Source: Escherichia phage vB_EcoS_GZMU_E2010. From it: a stretch of DNA of 44,255 bases. The stretch lies in sequence record PV845598.1; one strand, 5' to 3'. Below the pieces are notes generated by a model. It was not told the origin of the DNA. It was given only the letters and a program-made list of their open reading frames with translations, and did not search any database. The first letter of the stretch is position 1. Each line of letters begins with the position of its first letter. Position numbers and translations under genes: made by a program. This document shows, piece after piece, positions 40,089 to 40,165 of this stretch.

Positions 40089-40165
40089 AACCCTACGCAG
40101 TCTCCACCGCTTGGGCTGCTGCTTCGGGTTTACCGGGGCTTAGTATGCAAGCACAAGCAGCGTAG
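40089..40165. other. 77-nt structured element downstream of the endolysin gene
   Basis: 7-bp closing stem CCCTACG/CGTAGGG with inner GCTTG/CAAGC stem; no tRNA D- or T-loop motifs. Confidence 0.4.

Follow-up and report, generated by a model that had tools for sequence, protein, structure and literature searches.

Phage 'morons', described by Hendrix and colleagues, are extra genes that carry their own promoter and terminator and are inserted between two conserved genes. Phages also encode base-pairing small RNAs, among them sar of P22 and OOP of lambda, and hairpins in phage mRNAs are processed by RNase III, as at the R1.1-type sites of T7 and at lambda sib. In Salmonella, DapZ is a small RNA of the 3′-UTR type, with its promoter at the end of the upstream coding region. 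We analysed the non-coding interval downstream of the endolysin gene of Escherichia phage vB_EcoS_GZMU_E2010 (PV845598.1), for which an original prediction had proposed a 77-nt hairpin, and refer to the complete 44,255-nt stretch of DNA as the window. The comparison with related phages suggests, with a confidence that we place about halfway, that this interval holds an optional, horizontally exchanged cassette encoding a candidate small RNA of ~120 nt. The cassette, previously unannotated, appears to follow the layout of a moron, with RNA cargo in place of protein.

The window shows ~90% identity to K1G-like Escherichia phages (Kagunavirus, Guernseyvirinae). Every gene around the hairpin site, the lysis genes included, is carried on the minus strand, in the order two holins, endolysin, a 348-nt non-coding interval, ~10 small genes, terminases and portal, with the endolysin as upstream neighbour of the cassette. 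For comparison we used 80 IMG/VR loci fetched via the endolysin together with ~25 GenBank phage regions, and the alignment of the element comprises 23 distinct versions. The coordinates of all features are collected in Table 1. Elsewhere in the window, a Mu-F-like head morphogenesis protein (630 aa; 32395–34287, minus) contains an intein (Pfam Intein_splicing, residues 263–526). A terminator-like hairpin with a T-rich tail, GCAGGCCAAGTAACGGTTTGC CGTTCTGGTT, lies at 40283–40303 on the plus strand, antisense inside the endolysin gene; L026 and L100 have it at the equivalent position, and it is probably a by-product of the conserved endolysin coding sequence.

Table 1 Features of the post-endolysin interval and its surroundings in the window
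Feature	Position	Strand	Description and basis
Endolysin, 162 aa	40200–40688	minus	Pfam Phage_lysozyme, E = 9e-27; annotated endolysin in relatives; stop TGA at 40200–40202
Whole optional cassette, 163 nt	40037–40199	minus	Promoter, leader, H1 and terminator 1; present-or-absent unit among relatives
Putative promoter P_A, sigma-70-type	40171–40199	minus	−35 TGGACG 40199–40194, 17-nt spacer, −10 TAAACT 40176–40171
Variable leader	40143–40170	minus	π = 0.22; 17/28 sites segregating
H1, conserved imperfect hairpin, 64 nt	40079–40142	minus	~21 pairs; RNAalifold consensus
Intrinsic terminator 1	40041–40072	minus	AAACCCGGA / UCCGGGUUU then UAUUUU, ten-pair stem; RNA folds
Candidate sRNA B unit	39937–40036	minus	P_B, CU-rich ~65-nt RNA, terminator 2; promoter scan and conservation
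Putative promoter P_B	40036–40008	minus	TTGACA 40036–40031, spacer 17, GATACT 40013–40008; promoter scan
Intrinsic terminator 2	39937–39968	minus	Stem then U8, loop 9 nt; RNA folds
Strong predicted promoter for downstream small genes	39886–39914	minus	TTGACT-17-TATATT; promoter scan, also in relatives
Putative small terminase	37649–37065	minus	
Large terminase	37068–35818	minus	

The 77-nt hairpin was originally drawn with a perfect closing stem and an inner GCTTG/CAAGC stem. The arms of the closing stem are present and extend to eight perfect pairs, between CCCTACGC, or CCCTACG(C), at 40091–40098 and GCGTAGGG, or (G)CGTAGGG, at 40160–40167, so that the predicted position was off by +2 nt. The inner sequences likewise occur (GCTTG at 40109–40113; CAAGC twice, at 40148–40152 and 40154–40158) without forming a conserved structure. 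As a unit, the hairpin does not rise above chance: the window contains 68 perfect inverted repeats of 8 bp with loops no longer than 80 nt, and shuffled sequences contain 46–66 (about 57). The minus-strand fold of the 77-nt fragment is unremarkable (z = −1.3), and in the full-context window RNA the closing stem has a pairing probability of 0.01, compared with 0.99 for the hairpin that we term H1. The comparison with related phages that the original prediction called for shows, in the alignment and in the pairing probabilities, that neither the closing stem nor the inner stem is kept. In 13 of the 23 distinct versions, the closing stem has lost its central U-A pair, and a search of the stem's pairs across all 23 returned no compensatory change. 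The endolysin-side arm (40160–40167) reads CCCTACGC in just 8 of the 23, gives way to an unrelated leader in EM1, Shashou, Schulenburg and L012, and is absent in L086. The closing stem is lost in relatives because this arm falls in the most variable stretch of the interval, and the other arm (40091–40098) is invariant because it is part of H1. The reported 77-nt hairpin is thus a chance pairing of the variable leader with one arm of H1 and not a functional unit, an example of a chance stem that points near, but not at, a real conserved structure.

The expectation that the element is not a tRNA was borne out, ARAGORN finding 0 tRNA or tmRNA genes in the whole window. The proposed covariance-model scan, performed with Rfam 15, yielded 0 families at the gathering score in the window and 0 matches at that score in the window and 16 related loci together; at a permissive E-value only terminator-driven matches appeared, far below the cut-off and none covering H1. 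In two relatives, alternative folds gain ground. In AV104 (L097), a G-to-A change makes H1 less stable, and the reported closing stem prevails with a probability of 0.97; in JSSK01 (L089), a leader helix GCUGCUU/AAGCAGC wins if the RNA begins at the predicted start site. H1 and an alternative fold therefore compete.

H1 is built from the helices UAAGCCCY/RGGGCUUA, AACCY/GGGUU, GCAGC/G-CUGC and CCC/GG-G and is followed, in the RNAalifold consensus, by a 6-nt linker and terminator 1; with the reported hairpin it has one arm in common, 40091–40098. The window's own H1 RNA folds with an MFE of −26.2 kcal/mol (z = −2.4), and the H1 pairing probability is at least 0.8 in 20 of the 23 versions. On the plus strand, the fold is more stable still (−29.9 kcal/mol, z = −3.6). 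Diversity in H1 is low (π = 0.031; 7 of 64 sites segregating) and lower again in terminator 1 (π = 0.009), compared with π = 0.187, ~6 times the H1 value, at the third codon positions of the adjacent 60 nt of the endolysin gene. These values indicate that H1 and terminator 1 are under purifying selection, although the low diversity of H1 could in part reflect a recent spread of the cassette by recombination. Such a spread is central to an explanation that we regard as unlikely, in which a small gene (a 38-aa ORF) was lost and left its 3′ end and terminator behind as a neutral remnant, spread by recombination and conserved-looking because it is young. An ORF remnant at 40176–40202, the highly mosaic slot, the deletion of H1 from Golestan-type phages and the somewhat reduced diversity of the last 60 nt of the endolysin gene (0.074 compared with 0.18 overall) all accord with a remnant of this kind. 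Within the same haplotype block, however, third codon positions (0.187) and leader (0.22) are 6–7 times as diverse as H1 (0.031), and the substitutions within H1 are mostly pairing-neutral.

The seven segregating sites of H1 fall at the two top pairs of the basal helix, at C/U changes opposite G, or at unpaired positions. C/U variation opposite G affects two H1 pairs and one pair of the 5′ helix, and a single compensatory change, CG to UA, occurs in the Shashou lineage (2 of the 23 versions). Mismatches are confined to three versions: a C-A in the version of the window and Bas76, a C-A in AV104 and an A-G in L012. The three variable H1 pairs leave 4 unpaired cells when read on the minus strand and ~20 when read on the plus strand, where U-G becomes A-C, and this substitution pattern fits a minus-strand RNA. 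A covariance model of H1 gives 100 bits for the minus strand compared with 19 for the plus strand; this comparison is weak, since minus-strand copies, the window's own among them, went into building the model. Covariation above that of shuffle controls was not seen among the 23 versions because the sequences are 92–97% identical; the structural support for H1 therefore comes mainly from the selection pattern and from thermodynamics. In Golestan-type phages, H1 is deleted while leader and terminator are kept, and H1 is therefore dispensable.

The strand preference also bears on a DNA-level role as a packaging (pac/cos) site, replication origin or protein-binding palindrome, which we consider very unlikely. 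In its favour, a hairpin can form on both strands, and the element is non-coding and shares its strand with the terminase genes, which lie 2.4 kb downstream of it. Nonetheless, the C/U changes opposite G preserve pairing on the minus strand only, and the element has neither a second copy nor repeats. Distribution and position of the cassette also speak against the suggestion that a packaging site is conceivable here: of 210 related phage records, just 39 carry it, and the small terminase gene is 2.4 kb away. Phages without the cassette include fBC-Eco01, EF2-1, fEg-Eco19 and K1H, whose small terminase genes are 88–94% identical to that of the window. The small terminase of some non-carriers is as similar to the window's as that of any carrier, which is evidence against a packaging site. 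For fBC-Eco01, PhageTerm detected no fixed termini (PMC9825357).

Both minus-strand terminators of the original prediction proved real, each a GC-rich hairpin followed by a U tract. No U tract follows either of them on the plus strand, and a C-to-U change in terminator 1 creates a U-G pair that is compatible with the minus strand only. A simple terminator scan listed neither, we think because an extension of the stem consumes part of the U tract of terminator 1 and because the loop of terminator 2 measures 9 nt.

At the upstream edge of the cassette, the window's P_A matches the consensus at 8 of 12 positions, which is below the threshold of the promoter scan, so that the scan did not report it. 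Among the relatives scanned, a promoter was reported at this site in 8 of 8, with 9–10 of 12 matches; each scanned region contains 1–3 promoter-like matches in total, compared with 0.3–0.8 expected from shuffles. The site reads TGGACG-16-TATAAT with an upstream TG in L086 and L026 (a perfect TGnTATAAT), TGGACG-17-TATTAT in Shashou and TGGACG-17-TAAAAT in XY1; the complete L086-type version is TGATATAAT. In Jersey-like Salmonella phages, TGGACG-16/18-TATAGT or TATATT straddles the endolysin stop. Positions 2 (A−11) and 6 (T−7) of the P_A −10 element are invariant in the 23 versions, and the stretch between −10 and ACGCUG varies freely, as expected of a discriminator region. From the spacing to the −10 element, transcription is predicted to start near 40163, and the RNA would therefore retain only ACGC of the reported endolysin-side arm.

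The leader that follows holds the non-conserved arm of the reported stem (40160–40167) and is swapped wholesale in EM1, Shashou, Schulenburg, L012 and L086. In type B phages, the same H1 stands behind an unrelated leader that is common to these phages and to the 25-aa ORF cargo. The leader is modular and exists in two unrelated versions. Eight codons follow the endolysin stop (40176–40202, minus; ATG ATG GAC GAA TAC GAA GGC GTT TAG, MMDEYEGV*). They are what remains, the last 8 codons, of a 38-aa ORF that phage M01 has kept intact (L090, 704–820), and P_A overlaps them. The remnant points to a deletion between two ATGA motifs.

The original prediction offered a 3′-UTR stability or processing structure as its first reading. 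What stands of it is a conserved minus-strand RNA structure between the endolysin stop and terminator 1; what fails is the structure as drawn, since the conserved hairpin is H1, with one arm in common, and since relatives have a promoter upstream of it. This promoter directly upstream makes a separate small transcription unit the more likely reading. We nevertheless keep as a serious, if rather doubtful, competitor the explanation that the lysis-operon mRNA ends in a 3′-UTR structure with no transcript of its own, in which H1 and terminator 1 define and protect the 3′ end or H1 is an RNase III site. The element follows the endolysin stop immediately and on the same strand, H1 resembles RNase III substrates in its length and internal loops, the window's P_A is weak, and M01 has the same structure as the 3′ UTR of its 38-aa ORF. 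Against this, most relatives do without the element and their lysis transcript ends at terminator 2, a terminator hairpin by itself already protects a 3′ end, and a promoter-like site is found at the 5′ edge in every version, with TGGACG provided by two different contexts. The optional nature of the element would also go unexplained.

That optional nature is apparent from the slot in which the cassette lies. In empty-slot relatives, the endolysin stop sits within GGTTGACA, the −35 element of the next promoter, and the natural empty-slot junction reads GGTTGACACC; in L086, the cassette insert has TTGA on either flank. In IMG/VR relatives, either the next promoter follows the endolysin stop directly or alternative cargo occupies the slot, namely (i) a 25-aa ORF, (ii) a 30-aa hydrophobic ORF that overlaps the stop as ATGA, (iii) the 38-aa ORF together with H1 (M01), (iv) a non-coding, structured-looking 'element X' or (v) the H1-deleted form of the Golestan type. 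The 180-nt empty slot of fBC-Eco01 is annotated with a promoter, a terminator and a second promoter only. The 38-, 30- and 25-aa ORFs have no match in PHROGs at E < 0.001; the 30-aa ORF has one weak match (E = 0.006) to a family of unknown function.

In the small-RNA reading that we prefer, the sigma-70-type promoter P_A just past the endolysin stop would fire and yield a discrete RNA of ~120 nt, from ~40163 to ~40041 on the minus strand, that comprises leader, H1 and terminator 1. Judging from this architecture, the most likely mode of action would be that of a trans-acting regulatory RNA, in which H1 and the terminator would form a stable body and the exchangeable 5′ leader would contact targets. 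Any read-through lysis transcript would likewise end in this H1–terminator structure. A related arrangement, in which the RNA acts in cis as an antiterminator of the HK022 put kind and allows read-through of terminators 1 and 2 into the downstream genes, strikes us as extremely unlikely. In its favour is the position of a structured RNA directly between a promoter and two terminators, with late genes beyond them on the same strand; yet the element is optional and brings its own terminator, consists of a single hairpin and not two, resembles no Rfam family, and is not needed in relatives with the same gene order.

Searches for the origin, relatives and targets of the candidate RNA gave the following results. 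BLAST of 5,426 E. coli genomes returned no match that would indicate a host origin, and a 20-mer of the core had no match in 185,579 species genomes; matches came only from one metagenome contig and five IMG/VR contigs. A covariance-model search of the window and 57 loci, the Jersey-like slots included, detected neither another copy of H1 nor a distant homologue. None of these searches returned an H1 homologue beyond this subset of phages. No complementarity of at least 12 nt to other transcripts of the window was found, the 11-mers present being at chance level. A literature search for small RNAs or intergenic transcripts in Kagunavirus, Jerseyvirus and Guernseyvirinae found nothing, and the one Kagunavirus transcriptome paper found makes no mention of intergenic regions or small RNAs (PMC12645636).

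Several other candidates at the locus were rejected. The cassette RNA is no apparent sponge for the neighbouring candidate sRNA B, the duplex energy equalling that of shuffles with no excess pairing. The plus-strand 69-aa ORF at 40086–40295 is broken by 1-nt indels in relatives, the 17-codon frame that opens with the minus-strand AUG at 40075 extends across the terminator and is variable in its first and second codon positions, and the 8-codon MMDEYEGV frame is not a gene but the remnant of M01's 38-aa ORF.

Immediately downstream of the cassette, the candidate sRNA B unit occurs in nearly all Kagunavirus loci fetched (57 distinct versions). Its predicted transcript, from ~40001 to 39937, is CU-rich (ACCUCCUGUUCCAUCCCUCUGCUCUCCAG...) and of low diversity (π = 0.019), and the stem of its terminator differs in L032, L039 and L041 yet remains complementary. 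GenBank records show at most a promoter and a terminator at this position and no gene, in fBC-Eco01 likewise. The predicted 5′ region contains AUCACCUCCU, which equals a ten-base stretch at the 3′ end of 16S rRNA, the anti-Shine-Dalgarno sequence. In L012 (~2690–2790), an insert of ~100 nt separates the P_B −10 element from the sRNA B body. A 13-bp inverted repeat, TTAGGCGAGTAGT / ACTACTCGCCTAA, encloses the insert, which could be either a miniature mobile element or another structured cargo.

The slot directly 3′ of the endolysin stop is hypervariable across Guernseyvirinae (L001–L054, L081–L111). In Jersey-like phages, its promoter and its 3′ end, CAAAUUCCAYSCAGCCAGC followed by a terminator, are conserved, and unrelated RNA sequences of 30–230 nt lie between them. 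'Element X', ~90 nt of non-coding sequence, occupies the same slot in four contigs (L015 ~2560–2655, L018 ~2500–2608, L026 ~2575–2665, L043 ~2510–2600) whose endolysins are 74–96% identical to the window's. One position of its helix shows three pair types (AU, CG, UA) and another two, and it has no Rfam match.

A broader reading, which we put forward as quite improbable, is that the post-endolysin site is a Guernseyvirinae-wide locus of fast-changing non-coding RNAs that are swapped by recombination behind a conserved promoter. This promoter, with its −35 TGGACG often inside the last codons of the endolysin gene, would drive unrelated structured RNAs: H1, 'element X', the Jersey-type RNAs of 30–230 nt and the L012 insert. 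Their turnover would fit an arms race with the host, in which the RNAs could inhibit RNA-sensing or RNA-guided defences, act as decoys for them or target the host as small RNAs. Were this so, the locus would be an RNA counterpart of the islands of protein anti-defence genes. If the cassette itself is transcribed, virulent E. coli phages of therapy collections (K1 phages and the BASEL phage Bas76) carry an unannotated small RNA, and the 3′ end of the endolysin gene is a Guernseyvirinae hotspot for the exchange of non-coding cargo. Natural 'empty' and 'filled' alleles exist, and the effect of the RNA is therefore testable by simple allele swaps.

Among the described systems, morons resemble the cassette in that it lies between conserved neighbours, is present or absent in close relatives, shares its slot with alternative cargoes, and is edged by a promoter-like site (predicted) and an intrinsic terminator; they differ in that the cargo of the cassette is apparently a structured RNA and not a protein. 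As in the phage-encoded base-pairing small RNAs, the candidate RNA is intergenic in a phage of enterobacteria, but it is antisense to no gene and the phage is virulent. With DapZ, it has in common that the −35 TGGACG of L086, L026 and Jersey-like phages lies in the last codons of the endolysin gene and the −10 element past the stop, and that candidate RNA and upstream mRNA use one terminator; in contrast to DapZ, the window's P_A lies wholly past the stop codon, in the remnant of another small ORF. H1 is irregular, with ~20 bp and internal loops, and lies at the 3′ end of a phage transcription unit, as do the T7 R1.1-type and lambda sib hairpins. It departs from these in being part of an optional element and in being followed by a terminator of its own. 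The cassette has no sequence or covariance-model similarity to LPR1/PreS, sar or OOP. In architecture, it is similar to lambda LPR1/PreS (bioRxiv 10.1101/2024.10.31.621285), with a length of ~60–120 nt, its own promoter (predicted here), a stem-loop body and a U-tailed terminator.
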